Part shown: positions 1 through 33,435 of the stretch, in pieces
Layout of the letters: every line of letters starts with the position of its first letter
Position numbering within the stretch: the stretch's first letter is position 1
Source of the DNA: Nannocystis pusilla
GTDB taxonomy: Bacteria > Myxococcota_A > Polyangia > Nannocystales > Nannocystaceae
Strand: one strand, 5' to 3'
NCBI RefSeq assembly: GCF_049337375.1
Contig: NZ_JBMPIV010000015.1
DNA: 35,397 bases
The notes under the pieces: generated by a model
Database searches by the model: none
What the model was told of the DNA's origin: nothing
Seen by the model: only the letters and a program-made list of their open reading frames with translations
Position numbers and translations under genes: made by a program

Positions 1-22
1 CTGCGCCGGCGGAGAGCGAGAG

Positions 23-16148: not shown

Positions 16149-16388
16149 GGAGGACATGTCCGAGAGGACCTGTCTCGTGCGTGCGGAGGTCCGTGGGGAC
16201 ATGTCCTCTCGGACACTCCCGAGGGGACATGGCGGAGCGTCCGCGCGGCGCGCCCGTGCCGGCGCCGCGGGGAGGCGGTCTTTCGGGACATGTCCTTGCA
16301 GACATTTCCGCTGAGCTGGCGTCGGAGCGGCGCTCTCGTGGCCAGTTTTGTGTGTGGTGGTATTTGGGGACATGTCCTATCGGACGTG
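16149..16388. repeat. four repeat-family copies in the convergent intergenic gap between the S41 peptidase and SDR genes
   Basis: GGGAGGACATGTCCGAGAGGACCTGTCTCG; GGGGACATGTCCTCTCGGACACTCCCGAGGGGACATGGCGG; CGGGACATGTCCTTGCAGACATTTC; TTTTGTGTGTGGTGGTATTTGGGGACATGTCCTATCGGACGTGG. Confidence 0.85.
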
Positions 16389-18420: not shown

Positions 18421-20316
18421 CTAGGAGGCGGGGACGGGCTCGGCCCCGAGGTCGCGGGCGAGGTCGGCGAGCTCGCCGATCGGGACCTGCAGCGCGGGCA
18501 GACGGGTGATGTCGGCCCGCGCGGCCTGGGCGATCGACTCGCTGGCGCGCATGATGAGGCCGCCGTTGGCGTCGGCGACGACGGTGTAGCCGGCCTTGCG
18601 CAGGCGGGCGAGCCGGGCCTGGGCGGCGGGGGTGAGGTCGGTGGCGGTGATGCGCAGGGATGGCACGCGGCCGGGCCAGAGGGCGGCGAGGTAGGCGGTG
18701 ATCCGCGGCGGGTAGACGACGCCGCCGGCTGTCTTTTCGTTCAGGTGGACGTCGACCAGCGCGGGGTAGCCGTGCACGTCGCAGCGGACCGCCCCGTGCA
18801 AGTGGCTGGTCCACATCGCCTCGGGGCTGACGGGCGCGGGCCACAGGCGGTCGAACCACGCGGCGATGGCGTCGTAGCTGGGGAGGCGCTGGCCGCCGAG
18901 CGCGTCGCCCAGGCGCTGGACCTCGGCGCCGAACCGCTCGCCGCGCTCCTCCCGGCGCAGGCGCAGGAGGATGGCGAGGACGGCGATGGCGATGGCGGCG
19001 TACCACAGGCCGAACAGCAGCAGCCCGCCGCAGACGATGGCGGCGAACAGGAGGCCGAGGCCGCCGTCGCGGACCTGTTGCTGGCGCCGCTCGTCGGCGT
19101 GGCGCGCCAGGAGGGCGCGGCGAGCGACCGCGAGGGCGCTGGCGGGGATCCGGCCCTCCGGCTCGGGGCCGGCGAGGTCGGGGCGATCGGGGAGGAAGGA
19201 GCGGACGGCGGCGATCAGGTCCCGGGTCGCGGGCGAGGCGGGGCTGTCGGCGGGCTCGCGCACCGCGGCGACCACCAGCGGCGCCTCGGCCAGACCGCCG
19301 GGCGGGGCCGCCAGCCCCGCCGTGGCCGAGGGGGTGCTGAGGCTGGCGCCGGAGCGGTTGGAGAGGATCGCCAGGAGCGAGGAGTTCGACGGGCTCATCG
19401 CGGCGCCCGGGAGGGTGTCGCTGGCGGCCGTCCGCGCGGCCGGGTCGCGGGCGAGGCTGGCCCCGAGGCCAGGTGCCTGCTCGCGCGGGGCGGGCAAGGG
19501 GCCGGACAGCGCGGCGGGGTCGAAGCCGGGAGCGACCGCGGTGCGGAGGCCCGGCGCGGCGGGTGAGCTGTCTGCAGGGACAGGTGATGAGGAGGCGCGG
19601 AGGGCGGCGAGGTGGCTGTCCGAAGGGACAGATGATGGCCGGCTGTCCGTGGGGACAGGCGGGGATCGCGTGGCCGCGGGGTCGAGGTCATGGCTGTCCG
19701 TGGGGACAGGCGGCCGGTGGCTGTCCGCAAGGGCAGGTTGATGGAGGCTGTCCGCAAGGACAGGCGCATCGACGGGCAGGGACAGCTGGGCCGGCTCCGG
19801 CGCGGCGTCGTGCCCGTGGGCGGCCAGGCCCGCGGCCGGCTCGGCCGACAGGGGGCCGGGGCGGGCGTCGGCCCAGCGGCCGGGGCGGGGGCCCTGCAGG
19901 GTGTCGCCGGGCTCGGGGGCGGCGAGCGGAGCGTTGCTGTCTCTCAGGACAGGTCGCAGGGGAGCCGGGACGGCGGGCGGCGGGGCCGGGCCGATCGAGA
20001 GCAGGGTGGTCGGCGGGACGGGCGCGGCGAGCAGCCTGGCCGAGGGCCCGGGCTGGTGGCGCGCGTGGAGCCGCGGGCTCGGCGGCGGGGCCTTGGCGTC
20101 GGGTTCGGGGCTGACCTTCGGGACAGGTGCGCTGTGGACCAGGTCGCTGACGGCCTGCTGGATCGCCCGCTCGTAGAGGGCCAGAGCGTCGGCGACGGCC
20201 GGCGGCAAGCCGTGGGGCTGCCGGCAGGCGGGGCAGTCGGCGGCGTCGCGGAGGTCGGCGAGCGAGAGCGCGTGCTGGCAATGCGGGCAGCGCAACGCGA
20301 GCGTCGGAGAGAGCAC
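18421..20316 (-). CDS. membrane-anchored protein: N-terminal zinc ribbon (CPHCQ…CPAC), long Pro-rich linker containing a six-unit repeat array, one TM helix, C-terminal globular domain of unknown function; 5' end uncertain (GTG 20316 or TTG 20295; the ORF opens at 20754)
   Basis: C-terminal ~220 aa non-repetitive and protein-like (…FDRLWPAPVSPEAMWTSHLHGAVRCDVHGYPALVDVHLNEK…); 4-nt gap to the downstream gene suggests an operon. Confidence 0.5.
   Translation of the reverse strand: MLSPTLALRCPHCQHALSLADLRDAADCPACRQPHGLPPAVADALALYERAIQQAVSDLVHSAPVPKVSPEPDAKAPPPSPRLHARHQPGPSARLLAAPVPPTTLLSIGPAPPPAVPAPLRPVLRDSNAPLAAPEPGDTLQGPRPGRWADARPGPLSAEPAAGLAAHGHDAAPEPAQLSLPVDAPVLADSLHQPALADSHRPPVPTDSHDLDPAATRSPPVPTDSRPSSVPSDSHLAALRASSSPVPADSSPAAPGLRTAVAPGFDPAALSGPLPAPREQAPGLGASLARDPAARTAASDTLPGAAMSPSNSSLLAILSNRSGASLSTPSATAGLAAPPGGLAEAPLVVAAVREPADSPASPATRDLIAAVRSFLPDRPDLAGPEPEGRIPASALAVARRALLARHADERRQQQVRDGGLGLLFAAIVCGGLLLFGLWYAAIAIAVLAILLRLRREERGERFGAEVQRLGDALGGQRLPSYDAIAAWFDRLWPAPVSPEAMWTSHLHGAVRCDVHGYPALVDVHLNEKTAGGVVYPPRITAYLAALWPGRVPSLRITATDLTPAAQARLARLRKAGYTVVADANGGLIMRASESIAQAARADITRLPALQVPIGELADLARDLGAEPVPAS
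19568..19770. repeat. array of six GCTGTCCGNNGGGACAGG(T/C)G units with irregular 27-51 bp spacing, encoding PVPTDS(H/R)-type peptide repeats in the linker of the 18421..20316 protein; more copies at 19935-19955 and 20108-20140
   Basis: read directly from the sequence. Confidence 0.8.
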
Positions 20317-25233: not shown

Positions 25234-25440
25234 TCACTTCGCGTCGGGGTCGAACTGAAACACGGCCTCGAGCGGGACCGCGAAGGCGAGGGCGATCCGG
25301 AAGGCCACCTCGAGCGAGGGGGCGTACTTGCCGCCCTCGATCGCGTTGACGGTCTGGCGGCTGACGCCGATCCGCTCGGCCAGCTCCTGCTGCGTCATCT
25401 CGCCGCGCTCGAAGCGGAGCTGGCGGATCCGGTTCTTCAC
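25234..25440 (-). CDS. XRE-family helix-turn-helix transcriptional regulator (68 aa)
   Basis: VKNRIRQLRFERGEMTQQELAERIGVSRQTVNAIEGGKYAPSLEVAFRIALAF; GTG start. Confidence 0.7.
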   Translation of the reverse strand: MKNRIRQLRFERGEMTQQELAERIGVSRQTVNAIEGGKYAPSLEVAFRIALAFAVPLEAVFQFDPDAK

Positions 25441-25463
25441 GCTGCCGCGCGCGGGCTCCACGG

Positions 25464-25883
25464 CTACATCCCGCGCCGGTAGTAGACGAGCTGCAGCGCG
25501 AGGCGGGCGAGCTCCGACAGGTAAAGCGACAGCAGCAACAGGTGCGCGACCCACACCGGCTCGACTGCGACGACGAGGGCGCCGATGGCCCCGATCACGC
25601 CGGTGGCGAGGATCCAGCCGGTGCGGCCCTCTGCGCGCCCCTCGAACTCGCGGTCGCGGACGTCGGCGGGCTCGGGGCGGCCGATGAGCGCGGCGACGAG
25701 GTGACCGCCGACGAGGAGCGCCACCAGCAGCACGACGGCGACCGCGAACACGCCGGCGAAGGCCGGCAGGATGGTGATGCCACTCGCCAGCATCCAGCCG
25801 GCGACCACGAAGTAGAGGCCCAGCGCGACGGTCACGCCGAGCAGCTGGATCCACACGCTCTTCTCCGCGAACGAGGCGCTCAT
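25464..25883 (-). CDS. small integral membrane protein cotranscribed with the XRE regulator (DUF2178-like arrangement)
   Basis: four hydrophobic helices; start at M19 of ORF 25464..25937. Confidence 0.55.
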   Translation of the reverse strand: MSASFAEKSVWIQLLGVTVALGLYFVVAGWMLASGITILPAFAGVFAVAVVLLVALLVGGHLVAALIGRPEPADVRDREFEGRAEGRTGWILATGVIGAIGALVVAVEPVWVAHLLLLSLYLSELARLALQLVYYRRGM

Positions 25884-25910
25884 GCGCGCCTCAGGGGTGG
25901 CAGCTTTGCT

Positions 25911-25963
25911 TGACACGATGTCAAAGATACGCGACACGGGAGCCGTGTCAAGCTAGCTTGACA
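25911..25963. promoter_or_regulatory. three overlapping palindromes carrying TTGACA hexamers: TTGACAcgaTGTCAA, GACACGGgagCCGTGTC, GTCAAGCTAGCTTGAC. Probable promoter/operator of the membrane-protein/XRE operon
   Basis: read directly from the sequence; lies immediately upstream of the minus-strand operon start. Confidence 0.55.
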
Positions 25964-26210
25964 TGAGTGGCGAGAACGTGGCGGAACGCCTGGCCTGCAG
26001 GCGCTGGCGTCGATCAGCAGCGATGCGCGTGGACGCGCGGGCGCCGGAGCGTTGTGGCGGGGACCACACGGATCTGCTCCAGGTTCTGGGTGGGCGAAGT
26101 CGCGCAAGGTCGATCCCCGCAGGCGATCAAGCCGTTCGCGTCGGGACGAGTCGCGCCACGAAGGCGCTCGCGCGCCCGGGTGAGGCTGGGCGTCGGCCTC
26201 GCGTGTCTGC

Positions 26211-26332
26211 GAGGACATGCGCGCGAGGACATGCGCGCGAGGACATGCGCGCCAGGGCATGCGCGAGGACATGCGCGCGAGGACATGCGCGCGAGGACAT
26301 GCGCGCGAGGACATGTCCGAGAGGACATGCCC
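26211..26332. repeat. microsatellite-like tandem array, about nine units of GAGGACATGCGCGC (14 bp), ending in GAGGACATGTCCGAGAGGACATGCCC. An expansion of the repeat-family half-site
   Basis: read directly from the sequence; lies just 3' of the stop at 26347. Confidence 0.9.
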
Positions 26333-26346
26333 TCGGAGCCAGCGGC

Positions 26347-28128
26347 TCAGGCGGCGGAGGCGACGCCGAGGGTGCGGGCGAGGGCGCGGGCGACCGCGAG
26401 GGGGCGGCCCTTGAACACGCGGACGTACGGGATGGCGCTGGCCCGGGCGGCGCGGGCGAGGATCCCGTCGATGTTGTGGGCCTGGAAGCCGGTGGCGATG
26501 AGCACGTAGTCGTAGCTGTGGCGCGAGATGCTCTCGCACTGGGCCTGGACCTTGCGGGCGTTGCCGTCGCACCAGGTGATGTCGAGGCCGAGCGACTCCT
26601 CGAGCTTCGACTTGAGGTCGGGGTCCTCGCGGTTGCTGACGAACAGGACCCGCTTGCCCTCGACCTTGGGCCGGACCTGGGCGACCAGGTGCGCGCCCGG
26701 ATCGTCGACGTCGTCGGTCTCTTCCTCGAGGTCGCTGTCGCTGTCGGACGGCAGCACGCCGAGCTCGCCGCGCTTGATCACGTCCTGCAGGCCGGTGAGG
26801 CGGCGACGCATGCGGCGGTCCTCGAACAGGTCGGGGCGCAGGGCGTCGATGCGCGGGCGGATCGGCTGGACCAGCGACGCGACCTCGGGCGTGTTGTGGG
26901 CGTCGAAGGCCCGGCCGAGGAAGGCGAGCAGGGCCTCGTCGTCGAAGCTGTCGGCGGCGACCAGGGCGTCGCGTTCGGCTCGCACCGCCGCTTGCTGCTG
27001 GCGGACCTGATCGGCCGAGGGCCCGGTCTTGGCGCGCTCGGGCGGCGGGATGAACTCGGGGTCGAGCCAGCGGCGCAGCTGCGGCAGGCGCTCGCCGAGG
27101 CGCCCCGCGAGCCAGCGCAGGCGGCCCATGACGGCGCCCCAGGTCTCGGGGTCCTCGGCGGCGATGAAGCGACGGATGTCGCGCAGCGCCTGGGCGTGCT
27201 TGACGAGCGCGTCGAGCTGCTCGTTCGGCAGCTCCTCCGGCGGCGTGGTCAGGTGGCGCGGCGGCGGGTCGGTGACGTTGCCGGCGATGGCCTCGACGGC
27301 GCGCTGGGCCTCGCGCAGGAGGGCGCGCGGCTGGCCCGGCGGGGCCTTGCGCGGGCGGTCGGCCCAGCCGTAGTCGTCGACCGGGACCTCGCTGGTCATC
27401 GCGCGCTCGCGATGGTTCTGCACGAACTCGTGCGCCTCGGCCCAGGTCTTCGGCGCGTGCAGCGTCTTCAGCCCGAGCTCGGTGACCACGCACGCGGGCA
27501 CCGCGTTCATCTGCAGCGCCTGCACCGAGCCGGGCCACAAGGTCTTGCTGAGGTTCGTCAGCTCGTGGGCGATCCGCCGCACCAGCACGGTGATCTTGTG
27601 CTCGCCCTGGAACTGCTCGTCGAAGCTGCGCGCGCGGGAGATCCACGCCAGCATGTAGACCTTCTGATAGCGCGGCGACATCAGCGCGAAGTCGGGCCGC
27701 ATGTCCTGGATGTCCTTGAGGATCTCTTCCAGGGTCTCACGCGCCTCGGCGACCGCAGCAGCGGGATAAGTCGGTAGCTGGATCCGGCCGACGATCGGGC
27801 TGCGCGGTAGCTCGGGCTGCTCGGGCGCGGCGGGCGGGGCGGTGGGGATAACTTCGGGGGATACTGCGGCGCTGGGTGGCGCCGCCTGCGGACGGGCTGG
27901 CTCCTGGAGGCCGTCGCGGAAGCGATCGAAGAGTTGACGCGCGGCCGCCGACGGAAACATCTGCGTCAGCGCATCTTCGAGGGCGCTGTCACGATCGGGT
28001 CCGCGGCCGAGCCACCGCTCCGTGTCGCGCCAGATCAGCACCTCGGTCCACTGATGGGTATACATCGCGTGGCGGTAGCCGCTGTCCGCGAGAAACTTGG
28101 GTAGCCAGCGCGCGCCGTCGTCGTGCAT
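26347..28128 (-). CDS. hypothetical protein (593 aa); acidic linker and conserved-looking C-terminal domain
   Basis: long non-repetitive ORF with typical codon usage; lies 180 bp downstream of FabG on the same strand. Confidence 0.55.
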   Translation of the reverse strand: MHDDGARWLPKFLADSGYRHAMYTHQWTEVLIWRDTERWLGRGPDRDSALEDALTQMFPSAAARQLFDRFRDGLQEPARPQAAPPSAAVSPEVIPTAPPAAPEQPELPRSPIVGRIQLPTYPAAAVAEARETLEEILKDIQDMRPDFALMSPRYQKVYMLAWISRARSFDEQFQGEHKITVLVRRIAHELTNLSKTLWPGSVQALQMNAVPACVVTELGLKTLHAPKTWAEAHEFVQNHRERAMTSEVPVDDYGWADRPRKAPPGQPRALLREAQRAVEAIAGNVTDPPPRHLTTPPEELPNEQLDALVKHAQALRDIRRFIAAEDPETWGAVMGRLRWLAGRLGERLPQLRRWLDPEFIPPPERAKTGPSADQVRQQQAAVRAERDALVAADSFDDEALLAFLGRAFDAHNTPEVASLVQPIRPRIDALRPDLFEDRRMRRRLTGLQDVIKRGELGVLPSDSDSDLEEETDDVDDPGAHLVAQVRPKVEGKRVLFVSNREDPDLKSKLEESLGLDITWCDGNARKVQAQCESISRHSYDYVLIATGFQAHNIDGILARAARASAIPYVRVFKGRPLAVARALARTLGVASAA

Positions 28129-29553: not shown

Positions 29554-30204
29554 ATGGCGGACCCGAACGGCGAGCCGCGGCGAGCCGCGGGGGTCCCCAG
29601 GTGGGTGCCCGCGGTGCTGCGGTCGGTGGTGATCGGCGGCTATCCGCTGGTCGTGTACCTCGGCATGACGCGCTGGAGCCCGCGCACCCTGGCGCTGGTG
29701 CTGGCGGTGGCGCTGCTCCCGGGGCTTCTGCTGCGCCTGCGCGAGGCCCGGCGCGAGGACCTGTGGCCGGTGCTGCGGGTGCCGCTGTCGCTGTTCGGGC
29801 TGTTCGCGGCGGCGGCGCTGTCGGGCGAGCAGCGGCTGTTCATGGCCCTGCCGGTGCTGGTCAACCTGGGCCTCTTGGCCAACTTCGCCGCCAGCCTGCG
29901 CGGGCCGGTGTCGCTGGTCGAACGGTTCGCACGCCTGCAGGAGCCCGACCTGCCGCCCGGCGGGCCGGCGTACTGCCGCACCTGGACCAAGATCTGGTGC
30001 GGTTTCTTCGTCGCCAACGCGGCCGTCAGCGCCGGCCTGGCGCTGTGGGCCCCGGTGGCCTGGTGGACGCTCTACACCGGACTTTTGGCCTACCTGCTGA
30101 TCGGGGTAATGTTCACCGTCGAGTTCGTCGTCCGCAAGGCGACCTTCCGTCGCTTCGGCGACGGGCTGCCCGACCGCCTGCTCCGCCGACTGCTCCGCGC
30201 ATGA
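29554..30204 (+). CDS. integral membrane protein of the lipid cluster
   Basis: multiple TM helices; stop overlaps the next start (ATGA at 30201-30204). Confidence 0.65.
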   Translation: MADPNGEPRRAAGVPRWVPAVLRSVVIGGYPLVVYLGMTRWSPRTLALVLAVALLPGLLLRLREARREDLWPVLRVPLSLFGLFAAAALSGEQRLFMALPVLVNLGLLANFAASLRGPVSLVERFARLQEPDLPPGGPAYCRTWTKIWCGFFVANAAVSAGLALWAPVAWWTLYTGLLAYLLIGVMFTVEFVVRKATFRRFGDGLPDRLLRRLLRA

Positions 30205-32255
30205 AGTCGTTCGCCCCGCTCGTCCACACCGATCCCGCGGCGCTCGTCGCCGTGGGCGAGGCCGGCGCGCGCACGGCCGGCGAGCTCATGCGCGACGCGA
30301 GGGCCGTCGCGGCGCGGCTGCCGGCGCCGATGCCGGGGAGCGAGGTGCTGGTGGTGTGCGGCGACCGCTACCACCTGGCGGTGACGACCCTGGCGGCGTG
30401 GCTGCGCGGCCACGCGGTCGCGCTGCCGCCCAACGCCCAGCCGGCGGCCGTGCGCGAGCTGGCCGGGCGGCCGTCGGTGGTCGCGCTGCTGCACGACTCC
30501 GACCTGGCCGACGCGCAGGACGTCCGCGAGTGGCTGGAAGGACATGTTTCAGGGGACATGGCCGATCCGACATGGCCCGAAGCGCTGGCGCCCGATCGCC
30601 GGCTGGCGGTCGTGTACACCTCGGGCAGCACCGGCGATCACCAGCCGTGCGCCAAGACGGCCGCGCAGCTGCTCGGCGAGGCGCAGGCGCTGGCGGCCAC
30701 GTTCGCCCTGCGGGCCGGCGAGGTGGCGCTGGCGACGGTGCCGCCGTACCACCTCTACGGGCTGCTGTTCGGGATCCTGGCGCCGCTGGCTGCGGGGGCG
30801 GCGTTCGCCCGCGAGACGCCGCTGCACGCCGAGACGGTGGCCCGGGCGGCGCGGCAGGTGGAGGCGACGGTGCTGGTCAGCACGCCGGCGCACCTGCGCG
30901 GGCTGACGGTGCTGACGCGCGGCGACCTGCCGCCGCTGTCGCGGGTGTTCTCGTCGGGCGCGCCGCTGCCGCGGGCCACCGCCGACGAGCTGCTGACCAA
31001 GCTGGGCCTGCAGGTGACCGAGGTGTACGGCTCGTCGGAGACCGGCGGGATCGGCTGGCGGCGGCACGAGGATGTTTTAAAAGACATGTCCCCGGAGCCA
31101 GCCTGGACGCCGCTGCCGGGAGTGACGGTCGAGGTGGCGGCCGAGGGGCGGCTGCTGCTGCGCTCGCCGTTCTTGGCCCCGGACGCGCCGGTGCCGTACC
31201 CGTGCGAGGATCGCGTCGAGGTCGACGCGCGCGGCGGGTTCCACCTGCGCGGGCGGCTCGACGGGGTGGTGAAGATCGCCGGCAAGCGGGTGGCGGTGGC
31301 CGAGGTCGAGCAGCGCCTGCTGGCGCTGGCGGCGGTGGCCGACGCCGCGGTGGTGGCGGTCGAGTCGCCGGGCGCGCGCGGGCACGAGCTGGTGGCCGCC
31401 GTGGTGGCGCGCGAGGCCGGGCGCGACGCCGCCGAGCTGGTGGCCGAGCTGCGGCGGGCGCTGCTGCCGTGGTTCGACCCGGTGGTGGTGCCGCGGCGGA
31501 TCAAGGTGGTGCCGGCGCTGCCGCGCGAGCCGAGCGGCAAGCTGACGCGGCGCAAGCTGCACGCGCTGCTCGGGCTCGCGGGCGAGGAGGAGAGTGCGTC
31601 GGGTGGCGCGAAGGACATGTCTGTGAGGACAGATGCCGACGCAGCGAGCGCGGGTCCGAGGCTCGGTGGCGCGAGGGACATGTCCGCGGGGACAGAGGCC
31701 GCACCAGAGCGCGGTGGCGCGAGGGACATGTCCGCGGGGACAGAGGCCGCACCGGAGCGAGGTGGCGCGAGGGACATGTCCGCGGGGACAGATGCCGATC
31801 CGGAGCGCGGTGGCGCGAGGGACATGTCCGCGGGGACAGAGGCCCATGGGGCGTCGTGGGGTGTCTCGCGAGACATGTCCGCGGGGACAGGTGGCGCGTC
31901 GGCGTTCGCGCTGGGCGGCCACGCGCGGCGCGACGAGGGCGGGGCGGCGGTGCACGAGGTCGAGGTGGGGGTGCCGGTCGACCTTGCGTTCTTCTGCGGG
32001 CACTTCGACGCGCTGCCGGTGCTGCCGGGGGTGGCGCAGCTGACCGCGCTGGTGGTGCCGCAAGTGGCGGCGCTGCGGCCGGAGCTGGGGCCGCTGAGGC
32101 GGGCGGCGCGGCTGAAGTTCACCCGGCCGATCGCGCCGGGCGACGCGCTGGTGCTGCGGCTCGAGGTCCGCGGGACTCAGGTCCGCTTCTCGTTGGCGCG
32201 GGCCGGCGAGGTGGTCACGGCGGGGGCGCTCGAGTACGAGGCGCGCGGAGGCTGA
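30201..32255 (+). CDS. AMP-dependent synthetase/ligase fused through a 5.5 x 16-aa repeat linker to a FabA/FabZ-like hotdog dehydratase domain
   Basis: YTSGSTG and GSSETGG AMP-binding motifs; FFCGHFDALPVLPGVAQL matches the hotdog dehydratase active-site motif; the true ATG at 30201 overlaps the upstream stop. Confidence 0.8.
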   Translation: MKSFAPLVHTDPAALVAVGEAGARTAGELMRDARAVAARLPAPMPGSEVLVVCGDRYHLAVTTLAAWLRGHAVALPPNAQPAAVRELAGRPSVVALLHDSDLADAQDVREWLEGHVSGDMADPTWPEALAPDRRLAVVYTSGSTGDHQPCAKTAAQLLGEAQALAATFALRAGEVALATVPPYHLYGLLFGILAPLAAGAAFARETPLHAETVARAARQVEATVLVSTPAHLRGLTVLTRGDLPPLSRVFSSGAPLPRATADELLTKLGLQVTEVYGSSETGGIGWRRHEDVLKDMSPEPAWTPLPGVTVEVAAEGRLLLRSPFLAPDAPVPYPCEDRVEVDARGGFHLRGRLDGVVKIAGKRVAVAEVEQRLLALAAVADAAVVAVESPGARGHELVAAVVAREAGRDAAELVAELRRALLPWFDPVVVPRRIKVVPALPREPSGKLTRRKLHALLGLAGEEESASGGAKDMSVRTDADAASAGPRLGGARDMSAGTEAAPERGGARDMSAGTEAAPERGGARDMSAGTDADPERGGARDMSAGTEAHGASWGVSRDMSAGTGGASAFALGGHARRDEGGAAVHEVEVGVPVDLAFFCGHFDALPVLPGVAQLTALVVPQVAALRPELGPLRRAARLKFTRPIAPGDALVLRLEVRGTQVRFSLARAGEVVTAGALEYEARGG
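30537..30584. repeat. repeat-family copy (GAAGGACATGTTTCAGGGGACATGGCCGATCCGACATGGCCCGAAGCG) in-frame in the ligase, encoding EGHVSGDMADPTWPEA just before the YTSGSTG motif; a second copy at 31071-31099 encodes DVLKDMSPEP
   Basis: atypical codons (gtt tca, aca, gaa, tta aaa). Confidence 0.7.
31603..31905. repeat. tandem array of about 5.5 units of 48 bp, each GGTGGCGCGAGGGACATGTCCGCGGGGACAGAGGCCGCACC(A/G)GAGCG(C/A), encoding (ERGGARDMSAGTEAAP)n between the ligase and dehydratase domains
   Basis: read directly from the sequence; not CRISPR-like because the units have no unique spacers. Confidence 0.9.
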
Positions 32256-33252: not shown

Positions 33253-33263
33253 CCGGGCCGGGG

Positions 33264-33435
33264 CCGCGGCGGGCGAGCGCGGGGCGGGCGTGCCGGCGAC
33301 CGCCGCCGGGCAGGGGAGCGAGCGCGAGGCGGGCGGCGCCGCGGCGGGCGAGCGCGGGGCGGGCGTGCCGGCGACCACCGCGGGGCAGGGGAGCGAGCGC
33401 GAGGCGGGCGGCGCCGCGGCGGTCGAGGGCGACCG
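33264..33435. repeat. 75-bp tandem duplication (2.3 units) encoding (AAAGERGAGVPATAAGQGSEREAGG)n upstream of, or inside a 5' extension of, the acyltransferase gene
   Basis: read directly from the sequence. Confidence 0.85.

Follow-up and report, generated by a model that had tools for sequence, protein, structure and literature searches.

A 14-nt variable-number tandem repeat beside a conserved gene of the Nannocystis pusilla group and its relation to a palindromic gene-end element

In the stretch of N. pusilla DNA analysed here (35,397 nt, G+C 72.5%; hereafter the window), the 3' side of a gene for a 593-aa protein carries a variable-number tandem repeat (VNTR), or minisatellite, locus: a non-coding array of 14-nt units whose copy number varies between fixed flanks among closely related strains. 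Every testable feature that defines such a locus was found at this site. The array probably arose from a small cluster of head-to-tail copies of the palindrome TGTCC-N4-GGACA, in which one degenerate unit was amplified, and a neutral or near-neutral repeat is the likeliest account of it. Taken alone, it is an ordinary kind of fast-evolving repeat; more unusual is the family of its parent element, which is dense, strand-polar and, in one gene, in frame.

The repeat and its alleles

The unit of the array reads GAGGACATGCGCGC on the plus strand and CATGTCCTCGCGCG on the minus strand, and Tandem Repeats Finder (TRF) delimits the array to 26209-26330 (period 14, 8.9 copies, 89% matches, score 195; consensus GCGAGGACATGCGC). 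Nine GG[AG]CATG starts (26213, 26227, 26241, 26255, 26267, 26281, 26295, 26309 and 26323) succeed one another at spacings of 14, 14, 14, 12, 14, 14, 14 and 14 nt, with one unit of 12 nt and one variant unit, CCAGGGCATGCGCG. The original prediction had placed about nine copies of a 14-bp unit at 26211-26332, terminating in the canonical element, and our data agree on both points: the gene-side end of the array is GAGGACATGTCCGAGAGGACATGCC, which has the canonical form of the local palindrome and lies in an inverted repeat with a 13-bp stem and a 4-nt loop. The motif GAGGACATG occurs 12 times in the window compared with 0.26 expected, a number reached by none of 100 shuffled sequences. Such head-to-tail copies of a unit of roughly 10-100 nt characterise VNTRs and minisatellites, and because the unit measures 14 nt the array belongs to this class rather than to the microsatellites. 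Thus, from the earlier description as a microsatellite-like expansion of a half-site by slippage, the half-site amplification stands and the term microsatellite does not; slippage is a mechanism that we infer from the composition of the units (see below).

As predicted, the array lies 3' of the 593-aa gene, beginning 14 nt past its stop codon (TCA on the plus strand at 26347-26349). The product is a hypothetical protein, for which one source labels an orthologue 'DUF2325 domain-containing' and which gave no significant Pfam hit; it is conserved across Nannocystis and relatives, and a scan with one genome per species returned Nannocystis only. Codon-position GC periodicity is present in both genes adjoining the spacer and absent from 25930-26346, and we therefore regard this region as non-coding. 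Two open reading frames span the array, 26014-26328 on the minus strand and 25963-27777 on the plus strand. They were rejected as genes, there being no codon periodicity in that region, a repeat period that is not a multiple of 3, and alleles that differ by frame-shifting lengths; the distances from stop codon to distal anchor across alleles (54, 58, 62, 136 and 298 nt) hold no common reading frame.

Table 1. Features at and around the tandem array (window coordinates).
Feature	Position	Strand	Basis
593-aa gene whose 3' flank carries the array	26347-28128	-	ORF list, GC3 0.93, Pfam, homologues
Proximal canonical hairpin	26306-26335	-	Inverted repeat I9, DNA fold, alignment, alleles
Tandem array, 8.9 x 14 nt	26209-26330	no strand	TRF, direct-repeat family D1, unit list, no codon periodicity
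Distal boundary hairpin	26197-26214	-	Alignment, anchor coordinates, RNA fold
Genus-conserved non-coding block, CTGGAGCAGATCCGTGTGGTCCnCGCCACA	26031-26083	-	Alignment of 9 genomes
Sigma-70-like promoter, TTGACA-16-TATCTT (10 of 12)	25924-25951	-	Scan; conserved in alignment
Downstream membrane-protein/XRE operon	25237-25883	-	Pfam, translations, gene calls in L012 and L013

Alleles were compared over the region that follows the stop codon of the 593-aa gene, between a leading flank, TGA-GCCGCTGGCTCCGAGG, and a distal anchor, GCAGACA[CT]GCGAGGCCGACG (GCAGACA[CT]GCGAGG), both of which are shared by the N. pusilla group. Between these flanks we found 3 units in Nannocystis sp. RBIL2 (54 nt from stop to anchor), 4 in JBMEQO01 (58 nt), 3 in CP185339.1 (62 nt), 9 in the window (136 nt) and 20.6-21 in N. 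pusilla Na p29 (298 nt; 20.6 copies by TRF), these numbers being read from assemblies and not from reads. The adjacent gene is 98-99.5% identical among these strains. A difference in copy number from strain to strain with conserved flanks is what is expected of a VNTR, and the suspicion that the array might be hypervariable, to be checked by looking for length polymorphism in other isolates, is borne out at the orthologous site. The array can accordingly serve as a strain-typing marker for the N. pusilla group, with five alleles in five assembled genomes.

Three contigs assembled from short reads in the Logan collection (L009, L010 and L011) all end 64-86 nt past the stop codon, inside the array, after at least 4-5 units; they add a further distinct, incomplete allele to the typing series. 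Since short-read contigs break there, the array is evidently hard to assemble from such reads, and the repeat explains the assembly breaks on the 3' side of the 593-aa gene. No fetched locus is an exact match to the window DNA, the nearest being L009, which like the other two Logan contigs is 98.9% identical to it, and Na p29, at about 98%; the 593-aa product is 100% identical to a cluster representative (P0001) that is carried on three short-read contigs.

In a neighbour-joining tree of the adjacent gene, the window (9 units), the Logan sequence (at least 5) and Na p29 (21) form one clade with at least 99.3% identity, and the alleles of 3-4 units fall in sister strains at 98-98.8% identity. 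Alleles of at least 5 units are thus limited to one clade, and copy number changes between close relatives, since members of this clade carry 9 as opposed to 21 units and their flanking gene differs by only 0.5%. No array was found at the site in N. exedens, N. punicea, N. bainbridge and N. radixulma. Errors of repeat collapse or expansion during sequencing or assembly could also create apparent differences in copy number, and the broken short-read contigs might be taken to point that way. This explanation is extremely improbable, however: at 122-281 nt the array sits well inside single long reads, four NCBI assemblies with contigs of 6.1-12.7 Mb have identical flanks and allele-specific internal variants, and copy number follows phylogeny.

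Among known systems, the locus resembles the minisatellites of the MIRU-VNTR type in Mycobacterium tuberculosis. Both are intergenic head-to-tail repeats with a unit longer than that of a microsatellite; in both, copy number varies among close strains while the flanks stay fixed, and internal variants permit the typing of alleles. Unlike MIRUs, which measure 40-100 nt, the unit described here has 14 nt, is not a multiple of 3, gives no sign of translational coupling, and is the decayed half of a palindromic hairpin element.

Derivation from a palindromic gene-end element

The 35-kb window has 38 copies of the parent element, TGTCC-N4-GGACA (TGTCCNNNNGGACA, up to 1 mismatch), compared with 1.12 expected, and 22 of the related palindrome GGACATGTCC, compared with 0.83. 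In sampled regions of six Nannocystis species the element reaches a density of 1.1-1.5 per kb, and its count is zero in two more distant Nannocystis loci from metagenome-assembled genomes (L006 and L008). Within the sampled region its copies occupy the gaps between conserved coding blocks. Beyond pairing alone, the sequence of the stem is conserved over many copies and in all six species, with loops that vary.

To relate the element to genes, we used codon-position GC for a crude gene call, both in the window and in independent element-bearing high-GC metagenome contigs. Of 281 called genes, 57 have the core of the nearest element 0-20 nt past the stop codon and 20 more have it 20-40 nt past (77 of 281), while the distribution on the 5' side of the genes is flat. 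The element is therefore associated with stop codons, and the hairpin at the gene-side end of our array, with its core 20 nt after the stop, falls in the modal class of positions. Copies with asymmetric flanks (GGC-TGTCC-N4-GGACA-GGTG) point in one direction across the window (15-16 as opposed to 0-1), and their orientation tracks the sign of the GC skew, that is the G-rich strand, and not the strand of the gene. The independent contigs behave alike, with orientation counts of R59:L13 at skew above 0.02 and R4:L9 at skew below -0.02 (Spearman 0.64, p = 0.014, n = 14), and GC3 skew in the window likewise follows the strand rather than the gene. Since flank orientation follows GC skew, a polarity at the DNA level, relative to the replication strand, is suggested by these sequence data.

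These properties recall the REP/BIME and REPIN elements of Enterobacteria and Pseudomonas. REP elements, like stem-loops at Rho-dependent 3' ends, have established roles at the 3' ends of mRNAs. Like REPs, the parent element is, in the sampled region, a short, imperfect palindrome with very many copies, mostly extragenic and at gene 3' ends, and its multi-copy clusters vary between strains. Unlike REPs, it lacks a GTAG-type tetranucleotide (none was seen at the foot of the hairpin in the aligned copies, whose flanks read GGC...GGTG or ACA...TGT); its core is much shorter (14-24 nt); its clusters run head to tail in strict 14-nt phase instead of alternating with linkers; and some of its copies are predicted to be translated in frame. 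By analogy, the element is probably a REP-like hairpin of gene 3' ends that would protect or define the ends of mRNAs, unlike a classical U-tract terminator. Two results counsel caution about such a role at the RNA level, namely the flanks that follow GC skew and the non-significant G.U bias on the sense strand (see below). We were not able to find a description of it in the searchable literature on palindromic, REP, RAYT or tandem repeats of Nannocystis and myxobacteria; a search for GGACATGTCC returned only papers on p53 response elements. Rfam likewise gave no family at gathering score for any part of the window; when 25850-26400 was scanned permissively, its sole match was a chance miRNA (E = 0.5).

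When copies of TGTCC-N4-GGACA are concatenated, the natural period is 14 nt (5 + 4 + 5), with GGACA/TGTCC palindromes at the junctions. Clusters of this kind are indeed found in the sister strains, where 3-4 hairpins directly follow the stop codon of the 593-aa gene, and the array derives from such a 14-nt-phased cluster. Judged by its sequence, the JBMEQO01 allele displays the putative ancestral form: TGTCC-ATCA-GGACA, TGTCC-ACAA-GGACA, TGTCC-TTGT-ATATA and TGTCC-TCGC-AGACA, joined head to tail. Every allele retains TGTCC-TCTC-GGACA, its arms extended, as the first hairpin and TGTCC-TCGC-AGACA as the last unit. The GGACA arm of the middle units, by contrast, has decayed to GAACA, GTACA, GCACA or ATATA in the short alleles and to GCGCA in the long ones, and the amplified unit is therefore GCGCA-TGTCC-TCGC, which is GAGGACATGCGCGC on the plus strand and the half-site unit of the earlier description. 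We propose that, in the lineage of the window, one middle unit would have lost its GGACA arm to become GCGCA-TGTCC-TCGC and would then have been copied repeatedly, to 9 copies in the window and about 21 in Na p29, most likely through slipped-strand mispairing or unequal recombination, with no change to the canonical hairpin at one end or to the last unit at the other. In this one locus a palindromic gene-end element can thus be followed as it decays to a half-site and is then amplified.

Slippage is the most likely mechanism in view of the near-homogeneous units, the insertions and deletions of CG and the multi-unit duplications: the 12-nt units are short of one CG dinucleotide, as expected of nested (CG)n slippage, and in the Na p29 array a three-unit block of 40 nt is duplicated. 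Stepwise insertion of units by some element-mobilising activity could also yield 14-nt-phased arrays, a possibility hinted at by arrays elsewhere that have heterogeneous loops. According to such a model, a spreading activity, for example a Y1/RAYT-like single-strand transposase, would add 14-nt units beside existing ones. The many 14-nt-phased arrays with unrelated loops would be hard to obtain by recent slippage, and the element is polar relative to GC skew, as is known for the single-strand transposition of IS200/IS605 elements. Moreover, an identical 20-nt stretch, GAGGACATGTCCGAGAGGAC, GAGA loop included, is found at two gene 3' ends 10 kb apart (16150-16169 and 26307-26326), a finding that either copy-and-paste or gene conversion from one copy to another could account for. 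In our array, however, the units are near-identical down to the degenerate arm and the spacer, multi-unit blocks are duplicated and there are 2-nt CG indels, as slippage or unequal exchange typically leaves behind. Among the 14 window ORFs that were scanned against Pfam, none matched a transposase family. We thus consider targeted insertion very unlikely as the source of this array.

A broader proposal would see the 14-nt-phased arrays as footprints of an undescribed REP-like system of Nannocystaceae, in which a minimal 14-nt unit spreads strand-specifically and coupled to replication, and the homogenised arrays are runaway products that modulate 3'-end formation upstream. Were this distinctly unlikely proposal true, the unit would prefer sites next to its own copies, mark most gene 3' ends and ride in frame inside proteins.

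Transcript ends and possible effects on neighbouring genes

On the minus strand the proximal hairpin reads CGAGGGCATGTCC-TCTC-GGACATGTCCTCG, with its edge about 11-14 nt after the stop codon, and each of the five N. pusilla-group alleles has it. Its DNA fold, at -12.7 kcal/mol, is far better than that of shuffled sequences (z = -7.0). Similarly to intrinsic terminators and 3'-protective stem-loops, it is a GC-rich stem-loop directly 3' of a gene, and its family peaks 0-40 nt after stop codons. Yet the stretch that follows the stem, TCGCGCGCATG, has no U tract, and a terminator scan called no site at the array or at the proximal hairpin; because the U tract is lacking, the hairpin is not a canonical intrinsic terminator. 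The stems of the element also differ from those of terminators in sharing one sequence over the sampled regions instead of being idiosyncratic, and the sense-strand bias towards G.U pairs that selection on RNA would produce was not significant among hairpins located 3' of genes (97 G.U-compatible as opposed to 80 A.C mismatches).

At the other end, the last degenerate unit, TGTCC-TCGC-AGACA, overlaps a hairpin with a 6-bp stem (CCTCGC-AGACAC-GCGAGG), and all alleles keep both this boundary and the anchor at 26191-26210. For the minus-strand RNA of 26180-26360, the fold is moderately better than for shuffled sequences (z = -2.7), with the distal stem among its pairs, and this signal comes from the two terminal hairpins. 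We rejected the array body as strongly structured, because three units taken by themselves had no advantage in folding over shuffled sequence (z = -1.1 to -1.8); the markedly structured part is the terminal canonical hairpin only.

Farther downstream, the block at 26031-26083 is conserved in all nine Nannocystis genomes examined, including species that have neither the array nor the XRE operon. It contains a small hairpin at 26050-26070 with a weak fold (z = -2.05), which reads ATGTGGT/ACCACAT in N. exedens and GTGTGG/CCACAC elsewhere; the block has no match in Rfam. It is a candidate for the true 3'-end signal of the 593-aa gene, or for a small RNA. Since the array is placed between the stop codon and this genus-wide block, it may, if the block marks the end of the transcript, lie in a 3' UTR whose length varies five-fold.

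The promoter of the operon that follows has its -35 box, TTGACA, at 25951-25946, about 260 nt from the edge of the array, close to the 300 bp originally estimated. It sits within operator-like TTGACA/TGTCAA palindromes (25908-25966; inverted repeat I10 and direct repeat D3). The operon encodes a 139-aa membrane protein (25467-25883) and an XRE-type helix-turn-helix regulator of about 75 aa (25237-25461; Pfam HTH_3, 4.7e-14). A link between the array and this regulator was discarded, as the palindromes use TTGACA/TGTCAA and not TGTCC; the GACATG that they share is probably a coincidence. Operon and palindromes (25237-25966, minus strand) are present in the N. pusilla group and in N. bainbridge; at this position N. 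exedens, N. punicea and N. radixulma have neither, and their spacer is occupied by hairpin elements. In an N. pusilla assembly (L012, JBMEQO010000002.1, 3001-5100) the gene caller extended the C-terminal 69% of the 593-aa protein across the spacer, giving a 699-aa product that stops just short of the XRE gene; it is probably an artefact of annotation or of a frameshift across a GC-rich, stop-poor spacer.

The original prediction had also raised an influence on termination or mRNA stability, and copy number might have such an effect on the 593-aa gene. On this view, the array would be transcribed with this gene and its copy number would act as an expression switch: by making the 3' region between the stop-proximal hairpin and the conserved block longer and differently structured, it would alter how efficiently transcription terminates, how stable the mRNA is or how much read-through reaches the membrane-protein/XRE operon. 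The position of the array 14 nt after the stop and upstream of a genus-wide block that is possibly the true 3' end, the better-than-shuffled fold of the minus-strand RNA, and the concentration of the element family directly after stop codons are all consistent with this. However, the array units themselves fold like shuffled sequence, a U tract is lacking, the downstream operon has a conserved promoter and operator palindromes of its own, and sister strains and species live with 0-4 units; we consider such tuning unlikely. The last two of these points, an operon with its own conserved promoter and palindromes and relatives that function with 0-4 units, are also why we favour a neutral or near-neutral repeat. 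If copy number nonetheless affects the formation of 3' ends, the alleles of 3, 9 and 21 units form a natural series for the study of 3' ends that depend on a hairpin and not on a U tract in high-GC bacteria.

The array shares with the phase-variable simple repeats of contingency loci in Neisseria and Haemophilus a tandem structure prone to slippage and a copy number that changes from strain to strain. However, it follows the 3' end of one gene and has the next promoter about 260 nt downstream, an arrangement with no apparent on/off logic; because it is neither inside an open reading frame nor within promoter spacing, it is not a contingency locus.

The same-direction TGTCC half-sites spaced every 14 bp might alternatively recruit a protein that recognises the element, such as a REP-binding, nucleoid-associated or transposase-like factor, with the array acting as a sink or nucleation site. 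Conservation of the stem sequence itself, over copies and six species and with variable loops, would fit such recognition, as would flanks whose orientation tracks GC skew and not transcription, a property at the DNA level. But with one palindrome arm gone, the amplified units would be poorer sites than the canonical copies, and their number is unconstrained among close strains, which makes a protein-binding role highly improbable.

Related repeats elsewhere

A metagenome scan for four CATGTCC in 14-nt phase yielded 117 stretches, of which only the high-GC subset is informative; most of the 117 were set aside as unrelated low-GC tandem repeats that contain CATGTCC. In high-GC contigs with the same hairpin there are arrays of 4-10 units in 14-nt phase, frequently next to a stop codon. 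Some of these arrays have an unrelated loop in each unit, and others are homogenised with a decayed GGACA arm (7 x GGGCATGTCCTGCG, 6 x CGTCATGTCCTCGC, 6 x CGCCATGTCCTCAG and 4 x CGCCATGTCCCTCG), so that the pattern of decay and amplification recurs in environmental high-GC contigs. Short runs of 2-3 units are present in the window as well, for example at 16152-16234, after an S41 peptidase gene; this run contains the 20 nt that are identical to the end of our array.

A further array of the hairpin element, 48 nt x 3.8, lies on the plus strand at 31600-31890, inside the open reading frame 30201-32255. The protein has AMP-binding/AMP-binding_C at aa 13-447 and a FabA/ApeI-like domain at aa 590-661, and the array falls in the linker that joins them (about aa 466-563); the GC3 phase is unchanged before and after it. 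The distances between conserved anchors around this array are 329, 191, 140, 302, 206, 200 and 128 nt in seven genomes; all seven equal 2 modulo 3, and the reading frame is therefore preserved. It looks, from this frame conservation, like translated in-frame insertions of a palindromic element, comparable to the Rickettsia palindromic elements (RPEs). The likeness concerns the parent family, and not the array at 26209-26330, in that a copy sits in frame in a coding gene. RPEs, unlike these elements, are single insertions of 100-150 nt and are unrelated in sequence, whereas the parent element forms short units in variable arrays of an interdomain linker.

Eight copies of the element cluster at 19569-20125, including an array with a period of 27 nt at 19641-19766. 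This stretch is free of stop codons, and a crude call gives an open reading frame at 18421-20316 (minus strand) with no Pfam hit; the cluster is either coding or part of a long divergent intergenic region. Finally, repeats of long period are found at 1045-1636 (150/312 nt x 3.9/1.8) and 33254-33431 (75 nt x 2.4, 94% matches); they bear no relation to the hairpin element and seem to lie in coding regions.
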